Part shown: piece after piece, positions 22,803-52,683 of the stretch
Layout of the letters: each line of letters opens with the position of its first letter
Numbering within the stretch: the stretch's first letter is position 1
NCBI GenBank assembly: GCA_012295275.1
Contig: CM022671.1
Location: forward strand, 23,808,001 to 23,872,000
Length of the DNA: 64,000 nucleotides
Reading direction: 5' to 3'
Origin: Chrysomallon squamiferum
Lineage: Eukaryota > Animalia > Mollusca
The notes under the pieces: model-generated
Told to the model about the DNA's origin: nothing
Database searches by the model: none
Seen by the model: only the letters and a program-made list of their open reading frames with translations
Program-made: the position numbers and the translations under genes

Positions 22803-24364
22803 CATTTTATTTTAAAATGTTAATATAATAAAAAGAAGTCTTTGTTATTACTTAAAATTATGTGCTCAATTTGATTAAATAAAGCAGTCAGTTAATATGT
22901 ACTGTTTACAAATCTGAACAGCACTGGATGTCAATTTTATATACAAATTACATATTAATAAATTTGGAAAAAAAAGCCAATATAGAGATAAATAAAAACT
23001 TTTTTTACATATTTAGTTTTTTAAACCTTTCATGAATTCACCTTTATCTGTTAAAAATCAATTTACTTTATACAAATAAAAACTGCTCACAATATAGTTT
23101 TATTTTATTAATTTGTTTTATTTCTTTTTTTTTTTTTTTGTAATCCAAGCTTGGTAGGCTTTGAATGTCAAAATTACCCTATATTTAAAATGGTGAGCAC
23201 TAAAACCATGGCTCTGTGCAAGTCTAAAAGAAAAATACATTTGTGTGTGTATAAACATACAGGCCACTGGATTTTCATTAAACTGGCCAAACTCTTATCT
23301 GCCAGGTGTGTTGAGGTAAATGTGATATATGGTTATTATACAAACGAGCTTTCCCCCATCTCTGTAACATTAAAGTACAGTAAACATTTCTTAAAATTGC
23401 TAATGCCACAGGTAATTTCCCCACCACCGAATTTAAAAAGTAACCATCTTTATGTAATTAAATTTGTGAGGAAGGAAGTAAAAGATAAAGTAAAAATTTT
23501 ATTTGAAGAAAAAGAGTTGTACTGTTATACCATTTCCTCAGTAAATTCTGGATAGGGAATTAGTTGTGTCTAATATAATTACAATATGATGATGATATAA
23601 TAATAATAATGATGCCTCTTAGTCTTATTATTATTACTATTATTGTTGTTATTATTGTTGTTGTTGTTGTTACTATTGTTACCACTGCTACTATTAATAT
23701 TACTTTTACTACAACTACTACTACTATTACTGATGACAGTGATTCTGGAATTTCTTATAAACAAAACTTTTCAACAAACACATCCTCTGGCATTTCAGTA
23801 CATATATACCTATAACTTTACTACAAAAACAAGATATACATGTGTTGTGATATAAATGAACCATGCAGACCAGACAGATGAAAATTATTCATTTAGCAGG
23901 TAATACATTCTCCACCAGACCTCCATTCATCATGTCCAGAGCAATTACCTTCCAAAAAGAAATCCAATTACTTTTTACATGTAAATATATTATATGAGTA
24001 TTTTTTATAAATTTATTTTAAAAATCTTCTGAAGTCTCATTAGCTAAAAAAAAAAAAAAAATATGCTCTGTGTTTTAACACTAGGTAGTGTATGCTTTAT
24101 GGCTATTTTTCATGATCTTTGTAAACTGTTTTCAGTGACGGATATACAAATACCAGTTCAGCATTTGTGAAGAATAAAAGTAAAGAGAAAGACAACTTCT
24201 GTGAGTAAAAAGTATAATGTAATTGAATGTTGTTATTGCTGTTGTTTTGTTGTTTGTATTTTGTTTGTTGCTTTTTGTTGTTATTTATTTATTATTATTT
24301 CATTTTATATTTTATTATTATTTTTATTTTTTTTTTTATTTTTTATTACTTTAATACAATTATT

Positions 24365-24475
24365 ATTTATTTTATTTTATTTTATTTTATTTTATTTTAT
24401 TTTATTTTATTTTATTTTATTTTATTTTATTTTACTTTACTTTTTACTTTACTTTACTTTACTTTACTTTATTTT
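24365..24475. repeat. (ATTTT)n/(ACTTT)n pentanucleotide repeat
   Basis: Directly visible. Confidence 0.9.
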
Positions 24476-27072
24476 ATCTACTTATTTTATTATTATTATT
24501 ATTTATAATTTAAAAAAATCATATAAAAATGTCTGAAAAGAAGGATTCTTTTTTAAAAAAAAAACCAGAAACATTTCCTCTGGCAGACATATCAAAACAA
24601 GCTAACCGCTCTGTGGAGTTTCTTCAAAACAGGACATGACAGTACCATGCAGGTCATTAAATTTAATGATGTGATGCGAAGGGTAGGAAGAAAAGTAAGA
24701 AGAAAACATGTCCTGAATATCCGAGGTCAAAACAAAAATTAACAAGATGAAAGAGGAAGAAAAAATATTTTTAATAATAATAATGATGATGATGATGATG
24801 ATGATGATGATAAAATGTAAATCTAAATCAATACAGAGATGGCGTGGTTATGTGTATGGATGATCCACTTCAATAATAAAATAAATATAAATTAACTTTA
24901 TATAGAAAAAAAAAAATCTGAAAATATAATAAACTATTCAATTACAAGCTTATTTATCAATGAAATATGTATTTGATACAAAAGAAATAATTAAATAATA
25001 ATAATAATAATAATAACAATTATAATAAATTCTCAAGAAAACAAAATTAGGTTGCTTCTGAAAATAATATGTATATTTTTTTTTTTTTTTTTTTTATTTC
25101 CATGTGCAAGAGAGTAAGACTGGTTTATATTTATTAAAATATATGTAAATTACACTGTATATATTAGCCTTACTTTAGATATATGTAATTCCTGTAAACA
25201 TTCACCATCATCATATTTAACTCATACTTCATGGACTTTTTCCATCAACCAAGTTAAATACAGATTTCTAGAAATACTTGCAGACTCTCAAGAGTTGTCT
25301 CCCTTCATATATAAAACCATTAAAACAAATTCTATCCACAATATGCAATACATTTATTTATTAGTTTTACTAATTACAGGTAAAAAAATGTTACAATCAG
25401 TTAATAAAAATACTTTTTTCTGATTTAATTATTTCATGAAGATATTTTAGGCCTTTAAATGAAATATACTGTCTGAAATTTTTGTTTGTTTTTGCTTGTT
25501 TTATTATTATTATTTTTTTTTTTGTTATTTTTTTTTTTTTTTTTTTTTTCTGCTTCTCTTTCTGTGTCTATTTATTTATAGGGTGTGTATGTGACTCTAT
25601 TTGTTTTAAAGATAAAAAAATATATAATAATGTGTATTAATGTAGAGATACTTCAGCAAATTAAACAGAAGCTAATAATAAAAAAAATACATTAAAACAA
25701 TAGCATAAATTTTATTCTATGTACTTTGTTACTAGCATCTGGCTAGAAATTATAAACAAAAAAAACAAAACAAAAAAAATATGTTGATTGAAATAGAAAT
25801 GCAAACAGAAAAATAAATACATATACATTTTAAACACAAGTGATTGTGAATGTAAGTGGCCTTGAAAATACTGAAAGGTTTCCTTAAATGTATCTGGTAT
25901 TCAGATAATATATTTTAAATATGCTCAAAAACATTTTGCTTATTATAATTTTGTTGTATTATTATTAATTAGTTTTATTATAATTAATTAATTTCTAAAA
26001 TGAATGCTATTTCTCTTTAAGTGTTAAAAATATGTGCACAATAGAAATGGAATAACAAGAATCTGACTTTCATAATTCCAGCAGGCACATTTTTTTTTTT
26101 TTTTTTTCATAAATCTATGTCCAGTTTGGATGCACACATTCAAACTGCTGTCAGTGTTATTCATGATAATATATGTTTTATTATTTTAACGAATACTAAA
26201 GAAGAAGTAAAACTGGCAGACAAAACCAATTATTAATGATTATGAAAAGATTAATGATTAATGATTATAAATGAAGATGGTTACCCTTACTGAAAATAGG
26301 TCAACATTTGTTCAAAAAGTTTTATTTACTTAGAAAATATTTGATGTTATTTTTTATATATATATTTTTTAACACTGAATTATACTTAAAATTCAAATGT
26401 TATATGTTTAAACTTTAATATTTATCCTTTCAGTGATTATCAAACACTGAATATGAGGGGTCCAATAAATATATAGAATTTGTTTAATAATAACATAATT
26501 ATGATAGATGTAAAGGATTTTTTGATATGTGAAATAATAGTTTATGGGGTCAGCAACAGTTAAAAGGGATGGGATTCATTTATGTAATCTGTAAACATTT
26601 ACAATATCACCATGAATAATCCAAATATTATACTAACACTATATACAATAATATATATATAGTAATTAGTATATCAGGTAAAATAATTAGTATTTACTGA
26701 GAATGATGAAATTTGTCTATGTTATTGTGAACATATTTTTGATTCTGAAATAAAAGTTTGTTTTTCTTAAAAATCCTACTGATGTGTAAAGATTATGAGC
26801 ATAAAGTGAATGACAAATAACCCAGGATCTGGTATATTTTTAATTTTAAATTCATTCATAATATAATTATTATCTACTTCTTAATAACATCTCGGCAGTT
26901 GTCTAATGGATGACCATGATGGCGATTGAAGACATCAAATGTTGTACGATCTCGTACCCTTTAGGAGATGCTATCAATGTATCATGACTCATTCAGACGA
27001 ATACAAAATAGGAGTGAGTGTGAAAAATCAGACAAACATGCAAAACAAATTTAAATATAAAACTGTACTCAC

Positions 27073-27094
27073 TTGTCTTGATTCTGTTCCACAT
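27073..27094 (-). CDS. Candidate alternative micro first exon (MWNRIKT+1 nt), phase 1
   Basis: ATG TGG AAC AGA ATC AAG ACA A|gtgagt; same phase as the exon 100 bp upstream. Confidence 0.3.
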
Positions 27095-27197
27095 AAAGAC
27101 AACAATGAAAAAGAATAAAAAGTAATAAACATTAATAAATAAATAAGCAGCAGATGAACATAAATCGTATTAAATGTAAACAATAAAGAAAACTAAC

Positions 27198-27207
27198 CTG
27201 TCGCCAT
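27198..27207 (-). CDS. First coding exon (MAT+1 nt) of large unidentified minus-strand gene running off the left end
   Basis: aaaATGGCG housekeeping-type start context followed by CAG|gttagt donor; sits at the CpG-poor / CpG-retaining boundary. Confidence 0.55.
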
Positions 27208-27540
27208 TTTTCCTTTGATCCTGTTTCAAAAGCCGCCAAATGATATCATTTCCGCATTGTTCTGTTACGGTAATTCCCTCCCTTTATTTGTAATACGACT
27301 AACAAAATTAATAGAAGTTAATGATAACTGGAAGGTAAACTTTCCATTCGTTTAAAAAAAAAAAAATTGTAAAAATTAAAAAAAGACAGAATGAAAAAAA
27401 GAAGAAAAAAAAAAACTGAAGAAGTAAAAGAGATGAATTTCAGTAGGCCTGCTTAGTTATTGAAACAGAAGCAACAATTTTAGCCTTTGCAACTTAGTGA
27501 TTAAATCGAGAATAGTTTGCAATTAAATTATTACTTTTTG

Positions 27541-27595
<55 letters not shown>
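27541..27595. repeat. (AAT)n microsatellite
   Basis: Directly visible. Confidence 0.95.
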
Positions 27596-27596
<1 letters not shown>

Positions 27597-29577
27597 TAGA
27601 AGTAGTTATAGATGTAGTAATAGTAGTCGTCGTCGTCGTAGTAGTAGTAGCAGTATGAGCACTATTGTTGTTGCTGTTGTTGTTATGTAAGGTACCATAA
27701 CCAACGTAGCCAAATGTATCAGTCACTTCACTATATCTGGTAATTAACGGCTGCCAGCCAGAATACCGTCACTGTCTTTCTTGATGTCTCTGTCAGAATA
27801 TCTGACATAGATTAAATTTTGTATCTAAGATGCGTAATGCTGGGAATAAATAAAATATTGCAATTGTTATATCGAAAGGTTCATGAACCTGTGCTGAACA
27901 TCAGACGAAGTGTGTCAGACAGACACTAATTTCAAACTATAAATCTTTTAAATTAATTCTCCTCTCCTGAAGTAAGCTAAATAATTTGGATTTCATTTTA
28001 CGAAACTTTCACAACAGTGTAAAACTTCCGAAATGTTTGTTTTGTAAACCAGACTGGATCATGAACATAAGATATTAAAAATAAGAAATGTTTCACAAAT
28101 GAACTTGTCTTTTTTATTTTTATTTTATTTTATTTATTAAATGTTTATTTTTTTTTTTTTTTATTTTATTATTTATTAAATGTTTATTTTTATTTTATTT
28201 TATTTTATTATTATTATTTTTTTTTTTTTACCTAAAATATCACCTACAAAGCTACATTTACACGCATGTATTTTACATTTAGTTTAATTTGTATTTGTTA
28301 CACTTCTTGTGGAATGTTTTCTTAAGAAACTAACAGCAGACAGCTCCAAGTGTTTCTTTCTGTATCTACGATTTGGATTAAGTCCGAAGAATCACGTTTG
28401 AAATGACACCTGCCCACATGGTTGAAAAACCATGCATTGAGTGCAGAATCTAGAAACCTCAGTTCGCATCTAGTTATTTTCCGTTTCAACCAGAGCTCCA
28501 GCAATGGTTGATGATTTTTTTATTTTTTTTTTTTAAATATTCCCGTATTTGAGAAAATAAATATAAAAGTCACTTCCTCTAAATCGAAAAAAAAAGAGAA
28601 GAGGATTAGATATTCGCATCGTAGCAGCCGATCCAGAATCTCTCATTGTCCATCTAGACATAAACCAGACGCATGACGCTATTTAACTGTGGATTAAGTA
28701 CACATTGTTATTAAATAAAATTATTTTAGTACAAAAAGATACAGGAATGAGAAGTTTCGCCTTTGTATGAGATCGTTCTGAGAGTAAAATAGGAGGAACA
28801 TATCAAGAAATATTGACATCTCTTTAAAGTTATCTAACATCCTAATTTAACTTCATCTTAAGATGACCCATATTTCTAGATTATGATTGTAATAACATGA
28901 TTATGCCCGTCATGATAACTTTCTCTGTCAAACTGAACAATTCTTTGCCTTTGTTAATGTTTCGCATATTTAAAATAATAATAATAATAATAATAAAATA
29001 AAATAACTGTTTTAAATTCTGTTAAAAACAGGATGATGCCAGATATTCCAGTAAGGTAAACAGTGAGAAAAGGTGTTAACATTGCAATATTACTGATAAC
29101 ATATTTTGTGGATTCGCTTCAAATAACTTTTTGGAGTTAGTCATTCTTGTGTACCTTATTAGACAAGTACGTTATAAATTACAAACGGGACAAAAGAAAT
29201 AAATAAAACTAAAAACGGTGAATAAACCTCACGAATAATGAAAAAAAAAAAAAAATGTCAAAGGTAAGATATATTTAAAAGATAAGACAAATGGATTACA
29301 TGTAAAACGTTACTGCAAGCTGACCTGCAGAACACTGGGAACATTAATACTTTCATATGTTTTTCTACATGTTCGTCACGACGAATTATTTGTCCACAAA
29401 AGTAGGCGTATGACGTTGATGTAAAAGAAGTCATCATGAAGTTGATGGCGAGACACAAGGATAATTTAATGACCTAAATTTACCTCCAAGACAAAACAGG
29501 AAAGAAAAAAAAAAAAAAAAAAAAAAAAGAATTAATTGTTTGCGACTAAAATAGCGTTCTGCGTTCATGCGGCAACA

Positions 29578-29609
29578 TATATAAGGATTAAGGCGGAGGA
29601 AGATTAGTC
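29578..29609 (+). promoter_or_regulatory. TATA box plus initiator for the LPMO-like gene
   Basis: TATATAAG at 29578-29585 and Inr-like ATTAGTC at 29603-29609 (about 28 nt spacing), ~420 nt upstream of the ATG. Confidence 0.5.
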
Positions 29610-29866
29610 GAGTCTAAGGAGTTTCTTTCAACGAATGACACTGCAGATTCACGTCTTAGGATTTCAGAAAGATACTCTTTGACTGATTCTTTTAGAGATA
29701 CAGTTGTCCTGTTCTGTCTACGAAGAAACAAATACAGTGTAATTTCTAATATTTAAAAGTGAATTCAAATTTGGAACTGAATTCAGTTTTTGGATGTATA
29801 AAGTATATTTTGAAACAAAAACGGAAAATTTCAGAGTTGTTAAAAATTAGAAAATATTAGAATTAA

Positions 29867-29897
<31 letters not shown>

Positions 29898-30023
29898 GAA
29901 ATAGCAGGAGAAGACGAAAAAGAAAAAGGAAGAACAGATACAAAAGAAAAAGCTTAGAAAACAAAAGGAATTTTGTTACACAGTGCTAAACAAACAAACA
30001 AAGAAAAAAAAAAAAAAACAATT

Positions 30024-30194
30024 ATGTATCTTGTCAGATTTTCAATACAATCAGCAGTGTATATGTTTTTCATTGCCTCTGTGGCAGGAAGAGGTCGTTT
30101 GGTGGATCCACCCAACAGATCCAGTTTGTGGAGGGAGGGCTACCTACAACTAATCAACAGAAATGATTCGGATTTAAACTGTGGAGGTGATATG
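30024..30194 (+). CDS. AA15/LPMO_10 (chitin-binding type-4)-fold secreted protein, exon 1
   Basis: Signal peptide MYLVRFSIQSAVYMFFIASVAG then RGRLVDPPNRSSLWREG...DLNCGG, matching the family start HGRLxxPPxRxSxWRxG...LxCGG; donor ATG|gtaagt, phase 0. Exact start Met less certain. Confidence 0.85.
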
Positions 30195-30540
30195 GTAAGT
30201 ATAAATATGTTCATGAGATTTTCCCATGTTTAATATTAAAAAAATAAATAAATAAATAAATGTTTATCACGAGTAGCCGATATTCAATAAGACTAAAAAA
30301 ATCATTTGATACAATAACAACATGAAAAGATGTAATATATTATTCTAATAAAACAAAAATTATTTAATATATATATACATATATTCTTTATCGAAAGGAC
30401 TCGAAAAAGAAGACAGCAAAGGTAATAACAAAGCGATAAAGCAAAATTTCATATGCACATATTTGTATGCAAGATACAAGCTTATCATTCCTGCAAACAA
30501 ATACTATAATATTACATTTATCTTGATATTCCGCTTTCAG

Positions 30541-30922
30541 CTTCCTTATTTACCATTCCAACTTAATGATGGATGGTGCGGTGTTTGCGGGGATTCCATT
30601 TTCGAGCCACGAAATCATGAACTTGGAGGTCTGTACGTGCCTCAGTTTACAATATCTCGACGTTACTCGGCAAACTCAAAATACATTGACGCAGCCGTCC
30701 TTGTAGAAGAGTTTCTGGGTGGCTTTTTCGAATTCTCGCTTTGCGCCCACAACGAAAAGAATGAAAAGGTTCACCAAGAATGCTTAGACGAAAACCGTCT
30801 TCGAATTTATGGATATGGAACTCGCTACTTCCCGCTAAGAGCCGGACTGCACCGACTGCGTCTTGAAATACCTGCAGGTCTTGTGTGTGAACACTGCGTC
30901 CTTCAGTGGCGATGGATTACAG
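30541..30922 (+). CDS. AA15/LPMO_10-fold protein, exon 2
   Basis: Acceptor ctttcag; encodes GWCGVCGD..PRNHELGG..GFFEFSLC..QECLD..LEIPAGLVCEHCVLQWRWIT, all family motifs; donor ACAG|gtgag, phase 1. Confidence 0.93.
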
Positions 30923-30950
30923 GTGAGAAACTAATCCCATCCATCTAATT

Positions 30951-30952
<2 letters not shown>

Positions 30953-31024
<72 letters not shown>

Positions 31025-31350
31025 AATAATTGCAATAAAGCTGCATGGTATAATGCTTTGAAAACAAATTTAACCTACTAATCAGTTTCATGAAACATTC
31101 TCATAATTAATATGTAATTAATTAAAACTATGGAATAATTGTACACATAAGAAACAAAATTTGATTTCGCCCTTCTCTCTTTTTTTTTCTCTTTTTTTTT
31201 TTCTCTCTCTCGCTCTTTCTAAGTCTCTAGCTCTGTCATACTATCTTTTTCTCAGTAATAACGGTTAATAATTCTGAATGACACACTGCTTTAGAAACTT
31301 ATCTAACCTACTAATCAGTTTCATGAAACATTTACGTGCACAAAAGTATG
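30953..31350. repeat. (CT)n tract followed by a local direct duplication in LPMO intron 2
   Basis: ctcagtaataa...tgcttt...taacctactaatcagtttcatgaaacatt occurs at ~31020-31098 and ~31251-31332, each preceded by a CT-rich tract. Confidence 0.8.
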
Positions 31351-31354
31351 TCAA

Positions 31355-31411
<57 letters not shown>

Positions 31412-31452
31412 AACAACATCATTATTTTGTGTCTTATGTCTTCTCTTGGCAG

Positions 31453-31586
31453 AACAATACACTCATACTGACTGCAGACTGTTACCACATCGTCGTCATT
31501 GTTTTCAGTGGATGCAGTACATCAACTGTGCTGACATTTCCATCATGCCATCTATTAACCCACGATTTTTCAACGTCTACCACTAA
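31453..31586 (+). CDS. LPMO-like gene, alternative terminal exon 3a (isoform a, 228 aa)
   Basis: Acceptor gtcttctcttggcag, phase 1; encodes (E)QYTHTDCRLLPHRRHCFQWMQYINCADISIMPSINPRFFNVYH* with the family C-terminal CADI motif; AATAAA at 31705. Confidence 0.8.
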
Positions 31587-33373
31587 CCAATTAACACTGA
31601 ATGCAGCCAACTAAAAGCATGTGGTGAATACATAATTTATATAGTATACAAACTAAACTGTGTTATATGTTACTATACATACATATAAAATAATATTATT
31701 AAAGAATAAAATCACTGTTGCTTATTTTATTTAATATATTTCTTTAAATAAAAATACAGAAAGTATTATACCTTTTCAGTTATTAATTGACTGTGTTATA
31801 TAATGAATATATAGCCATACATATATATTTATTTATTTTTATTTTTTTATTATTATTATGATTTTTATTTATTTTTTATTTTTTTTTTTTTTTCAATTTT
31901 TTTAAATTATTATTATCTATATAACAACATCTTCTTCTGTTGGAAAATGATAAAGCAATTAGCAGGGTTTTAAGACAATGGTCGATATGTGAACATGTGT
32001 TTGTAATGACCCATGGCTGTTACTGCTTTGCTAGTTAAACATTTTGCTTGCGGTTGTTTCGGAATAAACAATGGCTTCCTCTTTTATATCTTTTTATAAT
32101 AATCATTAATTTTAACGACTGTGATTTAGGTCTAACTACAAGTTTTAAGATCCATTTTTTTTTTTTTTTATTTTTTTTTTTTTTTTTTTTTTCATTTTAT
32201 TTATTTATTTTTTTTTTTATTTTTTTTTTTTTTTTTCATTATTGTAAGTAATGAAAAAAATTAATATCGGTAAATGTTTTGGACAGATTTTTTATTATTA
32301 TTACTTTTTAAACTTTTTTTTCATTTTTTTTTATTATTATTATTTTTTATATCGTTTTTTTTAATTATTATTAATTTTTTTTATCGTTTTTTTTTATTTT
32401 TTTTTTGTTTTTTTGTTTTTGTTTGTTATTTATGAGCGGAAATTGTTTGCGGGATACAACAGCACTGGTGTGAGAATACTTACGGTTTAACGCTGTATTG
32501 CAAATGGTTTCTGTCTGTGTGAAAAGCAGTTCATATATTTTATTTCAACATTAAGCAACTATTACGCGATATAGTACGGCTTAGCTGAGGATTATCACAG
32601 TTCAGGCTGGAAATAGCAAGAAGTAAAATTATGATGTTAGAGACACTTCGCAAAGAATTTATTGGCGACCTTTGGCTTACGACAAAAGACATGGTGGCAA
32701 TTGTACTCCAAAATTCAGGCAGAACAGGATCAGTTTGTGAAAAACAGTTTTTTGTAGTTGTGCTTTTATTTGTGTAAAATTTCGGCCAAATGAACCACTC
32801 TGTCCTCCTTAGCCAACAATGTCCATATTCCTCGTGTAGGTGGCAGCGAAATACGGTCACCGATTCACCACGTCATGAAAAGATCATAAATTTTGGTGTT
32901 GTTTATCACCATCATCTTTTATTTTCTTCTTATTGTTGTTGTTGTCATCGGTGCTGCTATTGCTGTCTTTATATATATATATATATAATTTTTTTTTGTT
33001 CATCCCTGTCTGTGTGCAGTTGTGATATAAGCATTGACTAGTTATCATACATCTATATGAAAGTATTTTACGGCGATTGGCATCAAAGTAAAATGTCAAG
33101 ATTCAGTTACAGTTTTCGAGTGGTACTGCAACAGAATAATTAAAGGCTGCACCTCTGTTTAGCCGACGGCAAGTTATGCTTTAATGTCAGCAGAGATTAT
33201 TTTAAATCGTAGATCAACATGTTACTTGACCTATATACAGTTGAAAACAGAATGGATTGTTCAGTGATTTGCTAATCAGAGAAGACTTGCCTTTAACAAA
33301 TGAAATTAATTAATTAAAAAAGAGAGAATGATGATGAAATATCTGCACAATTCATTTCAAGCATAGAACATTA

Positions 33374-33380
<7 letters not shown>

Positions 33381-33429
<49 letters not shown>
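33381..33429. repeat. (GA)n microsatellite
   Basis: Directly visible. Confidence 0.95.
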
Positions 33430-33431
<2 letters not shown>

Positions 33432-33553
33432 AACTAGGCCGGTAGGTAGGTAGATAGATAAACACATACACATAAACACGTATAAATATATAATACAGAA
33501 AAACGCAAACACACAAACATATGTATGTTAATTTAAAAGTTAATTACTTTCAG

Positions 33554-33792
33554 AAAAATTCACTCGTAATAAGTGCAATGGCCTGGTCTTTCCCAGAACA
33601 TGTCTGGTGCCGTGGCAGTATCAGAACTGTGCTGACATTGCCATTTCGGAACAGACGACCCGGAAGACACGGCTCCAAGAGACAATCACTGAAGCCTTGG
33701 CCGATCTTGCAGATTCTGATTTTTTTTGGTTTTTGCCTTTTCTTAACAGGTTTCCCTCATTAGGATTAATGGCCTCTCTGCTTGATGCTTAG
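33554..33792 (+). CDS. LPMO-like gene, alternative terminal exon 3b (isoform b, 263 aa)
   Basis: Acceptor ttactttcag, phase 1; encodes (E)KFTRNKCNGLVFPRTCLVPWQYQNCADIAISEQTTRK...LMASLLDA* with the CADI motif. Confidence 0.82.
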
Positions 33793-34429
33793 TATACATA
33801 CTTCTATATATAAAAAAAATTAGTTGTGAATAACCTCGTAGGAATCCATTTACATAATGAAAATATGTTTATTATATTCAGATGTTTCTGATGAAAAATT
33901 AAACGTTTTTTAACATTAATCAAGAAGATTGTTCAGTGAAGATTTATTTTGATATACCGTTGCTGTTATTTTTTGTATGTATTTTTGTTTAATTTTTATT
34001 TTAAGTGACATTATCACTTTCCTGTTTTATTCGATTTACATATCTTTGCATTGATGTATATTTGCTTCATGTGTTAATATATATGTGTGTGTGTGTGTGT
34101 GTTGTTTTGTATGTAATTGTTTATAAAGCATGGTATGTTTACTGAAAAGAGATAACGAAATAAAATATTTACAAAAGCAAAACTAAGAATAAATAAATAA
34201 TAAAACGTATTTATGATTGATTGTTAATTTTATGATATTTATGGATTTTTTTTGTTTTTTTGTTTCTGTTTTGTTTTTGTTGTATTCAAAAAGAAAAGAA
34301 AAACGTCAATTGTATACAATTATAATAATGTAATAACATTGCTGTATCACATTTAGAGAACTAGGAAAAACCCTATAGTGACTGAGCCACTCATTTGGCG
34401 TCTTGGCGAAACTTAAAAAGCTATAAAAA

Positions 34430-51426: not shown

Positions 51427-51532
51427 GTAATGTACTCAAATATCATTAAAACGTTTTATCTTCGCGAGCGAATTATAACACGTATGCAGAACAATAAAAA
51501 GAAAAAAAGAGATGACAATGAAAAAAACTTAC

Positions 51533-52395
51533 TTTTTGTCGCAGTCACAGTGACTCATGGTGGTCAGTCTGTAGTTAAACAGATTATATTTCCAATTGAA
51601 TCGTCCTATGATGTATTTGCAGTTATCATGGGTTCTGCAGCAAGAGTCCGTTCCGGCGTCGTAGCCGAGGTCATTATAGGACTCAGCGATGTCCCCGTCC
51701 CCGCACCATTTAGTCCCCGGAAAAATGAACCACCCCGACATCAGGTCTCTTTTGACCCGCAGGCGTGTTGCATTGACTGAAATTTCAGATTGCTCCGATA
51801 TATCGTTATTTGTTCCTATTCTCTTTCGAATGGCCTCTGCCGCTAATTTTCTTTTCTGTTCTTCAATTCTTGCTTTTTTGTAAAACATGTGACACTGTCG
51901 CCGTTGACCTTTCACGTCAACGTAGTTTTTGAATATTCCAAGAGAATTTCTGTTTCCTAGTGCGGAATAAACACTGCCATGTTTCAACACTGAAGCTGAC
52001 ATATATGCCTCAGTGATGTTTCTCCGAACACTGCTAGATATGAATGATTTTGCGCTTATAAATGAATCAATGAATGTCAATATGGCTTTTATATTTTTAG
52101 TATATTCACAGTCTTTTATCTCCCCGTGTTGGGTGACCAACTGAATAAGTCTTCTTCCATCACAAACTTGTCTTAGCGACAGACTGTCTGGACTGTCCAA
52201 AAACCCAGTGGTTTCTAGTATCAAAACCCTTTTATAAGCTATCCTTAATTCTCTTTCATTATTTTCATTTAAATTAACCAAAGCGAAATTTTTCGACATA
52301 AGCGAATAACCGAATTTTCGTCCGTTTACGGGAACCGTGAGAATAAAGCAGATAAAAATAGCCACCCCTGTAACACCCGCCCGCATCTCGACCAT
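51533..52395 (-). CDS. Group III (bee-venom-type) secreted phospholipase A2, exon 1; full protein 351 aa
   Basis: Signal peptide, long prodomain, RVKR site, IFPGTKWCGDG Ca-binding loop, DSCCRTHDNC active-site motif, SHCDCD; donor AA|gtaagt at 51532, phase 2. Confidence 0.95.
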
Positions 52396-52683
52396 GACCG
52401 AAAAATTAACGTCTGACTCTTACGGCGGCAACAGACGAGAGTGTCGTCTGCTTGTGCTCGAGGAGAACGCTGCGTGACGTTTTCACTGTAGGACCGGGCC
52501 CGCGCGAGAAAACCTACCGGCTTGTTGAACGTGTAATCGGTAAACCCCGCTTCGGTCTACACGTCCACGTAGGTCTAGTTAAACACAGGAACAAGCGTTC
52601 AGTAACAACTGACATTGTATAATGTTGGTCAAACGAAAACTTCCTTCTTCAGTTAATTCAGCGCAGGTGTTGCACAATTATTA

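Follow-up and report, generated by a model that had tools for sequence, protein, structure and literature searches.

An AA15-fold gene without copper histidines and with two tandem-duplicated, likely alternative last exons in Chrysomallon squamiferum

In a stretch of 64,000 nucleotides from Chrysomallon squamiferum (contig CM022671.1, positions 23,808,001 to 23,872,000; hereafter the window) we describe an AA15-fold gene that lacks the copper histidines and ends in two tandem-duplicated last exons, 3a and 3b, which are likely used as alternatives. On balance we favour the reading that the gene yields two likely secreted matrix proteins, predicted to be non-catalytic, with a common core but with different tails and a different loop and strand next to the lost copper site.

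Two last exons behind one core

An earlier note, made from the letters of the window, had reported two intact phase-1 terminal exons behind a single exon 2, and we reproduced its coordinates, phases and stops as well as the lengths of the two products (228 and 263 aa). The features of the gene, in window positions, are as follows.

24136..24200, + strand: upstream exon that one RNA contig joins to position 30088, an acceptor inside exon 1; 5' edge predicted from an AG
30024..30194, + strand: coding exon 1, with the start codon, a likely signal peptide (residues 1-22), the first strand and Arg23 at the His1 position
30195..30540, + strand: intron 1, GT..AG, 346 nt, phase 0; spliced in RNA contigs
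30541..30922, + strand: coding exon 2, encoding most of the AA15-type beta-sandwich core, with Leu116 at the position of the second copper His and a phase-1 GT donor
30923..31452, + strand: intron to exon 3a, GT..AG, 530 nt; removed in RNA contigs of runs X1 and X2
31453..31586, + strand: coding part of terminal exon 3a, with the tongue loop, the last strand and a 13-residue tail; 228-aa isoform; junction in RNA
31705..31710, + strand: candidate polyadenylation signal of 3a, AATAAA, read from sequence only; another at 31747
33554..33792, + strand: coding part of terminal exon 3b, with the tongue loop, the last strand and a 48-residue tail; 263-aa isoform; homologous to an exon of Gigantopelta aegis isoform X1
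34159..34204, + strand: cluster of candidate polyadenylation signals of 3b, likewise from the letters

All introns of both isoform models are GT..AG. The acceptors are the AG at 31451-52 (3a) and at 33552-53 (3b), the pyrimidine tract being weaker at 3b (0.55 vs 0.77), and the stops are a TAA ending at 31586 and a TAG ending at 33792. The N-terminus of the exon 1 product matches that of the G. aegis ortholog, residue 58 is Leu with intron 1 at 30195-30540, and the tail of 3b consists of an acidic stretch followed by a hydrophobic one. The AATAAA at 31705, to which the earlier note had pointed, exists but is weak evidence, because a second copy lies at 31747 and the DNA is about 30% GC (the window is AT-rich, with a GC content of about 21-36%). 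The intron before 3a contains an internal duplication (30956-31099 and 31188-31332; 145 nt, 76% identical).

Over their first 31 residues the two terminal exons align without a gap, with 14/31 identical amino acids and 54/93 identical nucleotides, and none of 100,000 shuffles reached 14 identities. This alignment, the C-x8-C-x8-C spacing and the common QY-x-NCADI-x-I motif all agree with what had been reported before, and the same ten cysteines occur in both isoforms. Identities are concentrated in the last strand (8/10) and fewer in the loop half (6/21). The exons are adjacent, homologous and equal in phase, and each has its own stop, as befits a tandem-duplicated 3' exon. A comparison of 30 codons of 3a and 3b gives a dN near 0.59 and a dS near 0.94, values that do not decide between a role of the loops and one of the tails or UTRs only. 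A third copy of exon 3 was considered and rejected, since none was found within the 64 kb, nor was a second copy of exons 1-2.

Of five runs that contain this stretch, the four recorded as RNA (X1-X4) were used to seek splice support; all four come from a single study and consist of contigs, which show neither RNA ends nor expression levels and whose low depth lets rare forms drop out. Junctions 1-2 (30194-30541) and 2-3a were present in two of the four runs (X1 and X2). The exon 2-3b junction (30922-33554) was seen in 0/4, which for low-depth contigs from one study is not proof of absence. Contigs of run X3 cover exon 2 and 33504-33867, unspliced across the 3b acceptor. In run X1 coverage starts upstream of the 3b acceptor, and introns and flanks are widely covered; this run therefore contains DNA or unspliced RNA. 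Alternative use of the last exons by one gene, as first proposed from the letters, is thus supported by the 2-3a junction in RNA, by the annotation of both forms in G. aegis and Haliotis rufescens and by an abalone transcript that joins exon 2 to the long last exon, but not by a 2-3b junction in these runs. We nevertheless consider it highly probable that both isoforms are made in C. squamiferum.

The RNA contigs also differ from the window at two places in 3b. Contigs of runs X1 and X3 carry a Gly-to-Asp variant in the loop (window 33581), and one contig of run X3 has an extra T in the T run of the tail (window 33719), a frameshift that would shorten the tail. Both differences may be alleles or contig errors, and the tail frame of the window agrees with that of G. 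aegis. At the 5' side, the loose end of contig 11 of run X2, a single RNA contig, is an exact match to 24171-24200, and about 120 more of its upstream letters remain unplaced. The form joining 24200 to 30088 encodes no signal peptide, and its joint creates an in-frame stop; transcription running on from a unit further upstream could explain it, as could a non-coding variant.

Orthologs and the history of the last exon

The best match of the window protein is G. aegis LOC121367712 (76%). Its two RefSeq isoforms (XP_041347977.1/978.1) come from one contig and are identical through residue 184, after which they split: isoform X1 has a 3b-like exon with a 50-residue tail, and isoform X2 a 3a-like exon with a 15-residue tail. 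Similarly, the two products of H. rufescens LOC124138663 (XP_046361377.1/378.1) are identical through residue 181 and then have long versus short homologous ends. In both pairs the split falls at the exon 2/3 junction, and RefSeq isoforms of this type usually rest on RNA-seq. Among the records examined, two of the nine other species found in the clade (G. aegis and H. rufescens) have both forms; a single form was found in H. asinina, H. cracherodii and H. rubra (the long one in each) and in Batillaria, Pomacea, Patella and Lottia (one each). Tail lengths across species are 47-50 residues for the long form and 13-16 for the short one.

These isoform pairs bear on a possibility that the earlier note had named as refuting its proposal, namely that 3b is the last exon of a second, distinct paralog and that the assembly collapsed the exons upstream of it. 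We regard this as most improbable, because in two other species one locus carries an identical common part with two ends that split at the junction, and because 3b itself is conserved (21/31 residues identical to the exon of G. aegis isoform X1). Moreover, no trace of exons 1-2 was detected between 3a and 3b.

The tail of 3b also aligns with that of G. aegis isoform X1 in the same frame (13/5000 shuffles), and in the variable half of the exon 13/21 residues are identical between the two species, compared to 6/21 between 3a and 3b. Window 3a, whose tail length and end motif make it the counterpart of G. aegis isoform X2, is identical to it at only 11/25 positions, and six residues are deleted in G. 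aegis. The earlier suggestion that both copies are under selection accordingly finds support in the loop of 3b but not in the poorly conserved loop of 3a. The conservation of 3b weighs against the idea that this exon is a decaying leftover that is no longer spliced in C. squamiferum. Decay would account for the missing 2-3b junction in the four runs, for the frameshifting tail insertion and the Gly-to-Asp change in RNA contigs and for the weaker pyrimidine tract, yet 3b retains an open frame of 79 codons, an intact AG and its likeness to an annotated exon, and contigs of such low depth lose rare forms. We thus judge decay very unlikely.

Of 43 proteins chosen for a tree of the common part, 8 were dropped upon failing the domain cut; the tree (36 rows, with a bootstrap that had not fully settled) places the window gene next to G. 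aegis (97/90) and inside an all-gastropod clade of 8 rows (98/99), which points to a gastropod host near Gigantopelta. A tree from the exon alone (11 rows, 33 columns) was unresolved. The abalone and vent-snail exon pairs may stem from separate duplications of the same last exon (convergence) or from a single old event. In support of two events, the loop of the H. rufescens short exon is nearer to window 3b (17/31) than to window 3a (12/31), the H. rufescens long exon matches 3b at 14/31, and none of 11 local tail alignments, those across the two groups included, was significant (best 107/2000 shuffles). On the other hand, both groups have the same junction and the same pattern of a long and a short tail, and a global alignment, picked after the local one had failed, matched the tail of window 3b to the H. 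rufescens long tail at 17/5000 shuffles, though the G. aegis and H. rufescens tails gave 1996/5000. AU tests (six tests on 11 rows and 33 columns) rejected neither the lineage-specific pairs (p 0.26 and 0.22) nor the single-event groupings (p 0.25 and 0.10). We view separate duplications as a serious though less favoured possibility; they concern the history of the exons and are compatible with our main explanation.

The lost copper site and the swapped segment

The fold of the window isoforms was read through their orthologs, of which 6/6 score above the PF03067 cut-off; for the separate window exons the sole Pfam match was a sub-threshold PF03067 for exon 2. By sequence, the only solved relative is TdAA15A (PDB 5MSZ; phmmer E 5e-32), and when both G. 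aegis isoforms were modelled with AlphaFold2 (mean pLDDT 82 and 88), 5MSZ was again the best match (E 3e-17 and 1e-17; target TM 0.81-0.82).

We then compared the copper site across 168 rows, made up of 166 proteins of at least 170 aa (two shorter ones were dropped) and the two window forms. His1 is kept in 131/168 rows (14 gaps), His91 in 147/168 and Glu182, which lies two residues before the axial aromatic and presumably has a second-shell role, in 145/168. The window protein has Arg23 at the first of these positions, Leu116 at the second and Met (3a) or Trp (3b) at the third, and the axial Tyr207 and the ten cysteines are present in both isoforms. A Leu at the His91 position also occurs in G. 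aegis and Haliotis, the His1 position is occupied by Arg, Gly or Tyr across the clade, and no member of the 8-row gastropod clade keeps both histidines together. Because both copper histidines and the conserved Glu are lost, the window gene is best read as an AA15-fold pseudoenzyme and not an LPMO; an active LPMO is rejected by the residues at these three positions, a loss that the earlier note had missed. The window proteins are almost certainly non-catalytic, as predicted from these replacements, and the gene is placed by its sequence in a gastropod-wide clade of LPMO-fold proteins without a copper brace.

Another protein of LPMO fold that has an Arg in place of His1 is LsAA9B, for which we know of no alternative exons. 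This fungal AA9 LPMO-like protein is also without a histidine brace, as described in the accessible text of PMC10354095; unlike the window gene it belongs to another family and kingdom, and its loss was independent. Other AA15-like proteins that lack both brace histidines occur in oyster, Aplysia, Babylonia, decapods and a wasp (P0136, P0137, P0159, P0102, P0114, P0120, P0108), and none of the four that the tree includes (P0136, P0137, P0102, P0114) groups with the gastropod clade; the copper site therefore seems to have been lost several times. In clade members from Pomacea and Batillaria (P0129, P0163, P0016) the domain follows a long N-terminal stretch rich in Gly, Ser and Pro, which leaves position 1 inside the chain instead of at a free N-terminus.

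In TdAA15A, according to PMC5823890, copper is held by His1 and His91 with an axial Tyr184, the active site is flanked by Tyr24 and Tyr166 and lies next to a tongue that links strands 8 and 9, and the role of the tongue was left open. The window gene has in common with AA15 LPMOs (TdAA15A, PDB 5MSZ; PF03067) the fold, the ten cysteines, the signal peptide, the strand 8-9 tongue and the axial Tyr. It differs from TdAA15A in the replacement of His1 by Arg, His91 by Leu, Ala89 by Glu and Glu182 by Met/Trp, in the non-aromatic equivalents of Tyr24 (Arg46) and Tyr166 (His189/Arg189) and in its two alternative ends. Without these two surface aromatics, chitin stacking of the canonical kind is doubtful.

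In the G. aegis models exon 3 forms the end of one strand, a loop and the last strand. Comparison with TdAA15A thereby supports the structural placement first suggested for the swapped segment, which corresponds to the tongue between strands 8 and 9 together with the position of the axial Tyr184. The axial aromatic itself, which lies in the swapped segment, is not exchanged, as the Tyr is identical in 3a and 3b; the abalone pair does differ at this position (Ile vs Tyr). A disulfide in the loop of the window protein would be expected by analogy with 5MSZ.

Both exons could be used and yet only the tail or the 3' UTR matter, through retention, assembly or expression, with the loops drifting and no two binding faces. 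Such drift could take place on a surface freed by the loss of catalysis, where the flanking aromatics are gone, and fits the poorly conserved 3a loop with its deletion in G. aegis, the low confidence of the loop (pLDDT 58 at residues 191-200 of the G. aegis isoform X1 model) and the consistent tail lengths across species. Conversely, the 3b loop of the window is well kept in G. aegis, with a further likeness to the short exon of H. rufescens, and at least one loop is therefore constrained. On these grounds we hold a role for the tail or UTR alone to be unlikely, although it is the chief competitor of our reading. Different binding by the two loops, within our preferred reading of two alternative matrix proteins, is a prediction that we put forward tentatively.

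Occurrence in shell matrix and proposed role

Evidence from shell comes from the abalone H. laevigata. In the 24 of 27 supplement files of PMC6003135 that were searched, shell peptides of the protein idb_66139 map to exon 2 as well as to the long last exon; their flanks span the join between the two, and peptides and flanks match the long form of the H. asinina ortholog exactly. In the acid-insoluble nacre matrix idb_66139 accounts for 1.06, 0.82 and 0.34%, as compared to 0.14 and 0.03% in soluble nacre and 0.02 and 0.06% in the insoluble prismatic layer (PMC6003135, Table 1). The protein was ranked among 77 major shell proteins and published as uncharacterized, and no domain is listed for it in the available parts of that paper. 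Motifs of the abalone short exon were not found in the same 24 of 27 files (one match was unrelated), and this form may differ in H. laevigata or be absent from the authors' database; likewise, 12 supplement files of the Lottia shell proteome (PMC3374290) yielded no trace of the ortholog from that species. Judged by the tail, the window counterpart of the abalone nacre exon would be 3b, but by the loop it is the abalone short exon that lies nearer to 3b, and we are unsure of the assignment.

PF03067 has been searched for as a chitin-binding domain in mantle secretomes. PF03067 domains are listed for bivalve shell proteomes in the consulted portions of two reports, on Tridacna crocea (Tcr_684209 and Tcr_714405; PMC8217771) and on oyster (PMC11464482), which discuss neither the copper site nor splicing; these bivalve proteins, like idb_66139, bring an LPMO-type domain into shell matrix. 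We consider it quite probable that the window proteins are structural or adaptor parts of a chitin-containing matrix.

The following mechanism could account for these observations. Cleavage and polyadenylation after 3a, as opposed to skipping to 3b, would determine which isoform is made. The long form would become part of the shell's insoluble organic framework; there, chitin or matrix proteins might be contacted by its conserved tongue, and its amphipathic tail, predicted to be helical (pLDDT 53-67 in the G. aegis isoform X1 model), might help retention or assembly; the short form would serve another tissue, stage or chitinous structure. A bolder version, which we regard as rather doubtful, is that in gastropods an LPMO was converted into a structural shell-matrix protein free of copper and that duplication of its last exon, kept or repeated after the split of vent snail and abalone, swaps the surface at the dead active site along with the tail, with one isoform in nacre and the other in a different chitinous structure, as a splice switch between biomaterials.

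The type of splicing is already known. Among substitutions derived from tandem exon duplication in human, 77 of 236 events are C-terminal, e.g. in GNAO1 (PMC8373072), and such substitutions are mostly old and tissue-specific (PMC9741552), as far as the accessible text of the two papers describes them. As in those C-terminal duplications, the window gene has homologous last exons with their own stops that likely serve as alternatives, keep structural residues and are old; unlike in the human cases that these texts describe, the exon completes the fold itself and adds tails of unrelated length. The earlier remark that no description of the arrangement was known consequently does not extend to duplicated alternative last exons as a class, but we found none in the sources available for an LPMO-fold or mollusc matrix gene. 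Full-text searches of the open literature, with hits judged by title and abstract and subscription papers outside their scope, turned up no account of the window gene, of splice variants in AA15 or of a gastropod clade of AA15 proteins without the brace. What seems new is a shell protein of dead LPMO fold with a likely last-exon switch.

Through these comparisons idb_66139, one of the major abalone shell proteins, gains an identity and a fold, as a member of the gastropod-wide copper-free LPMO-fold clade. It is precisely in the AA15 tongue, a loop with no settled role in the TdAA15A paper, that the two natural isoforms diverge, and they therefore offer a ready-made swap experiment for the role of this loop; the pair also informs how a chitin-degrading enzyme became a component of matrix.

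Elsewhere in the window, the minus strand contains an open reading frame of 296 codons (51532-52419) whose last 65 residues match Phospholip_A2_2 (PF05826, E 1.5e-24); this match makes the frame a probable exon of a gene for a secreted phospholipase A2.
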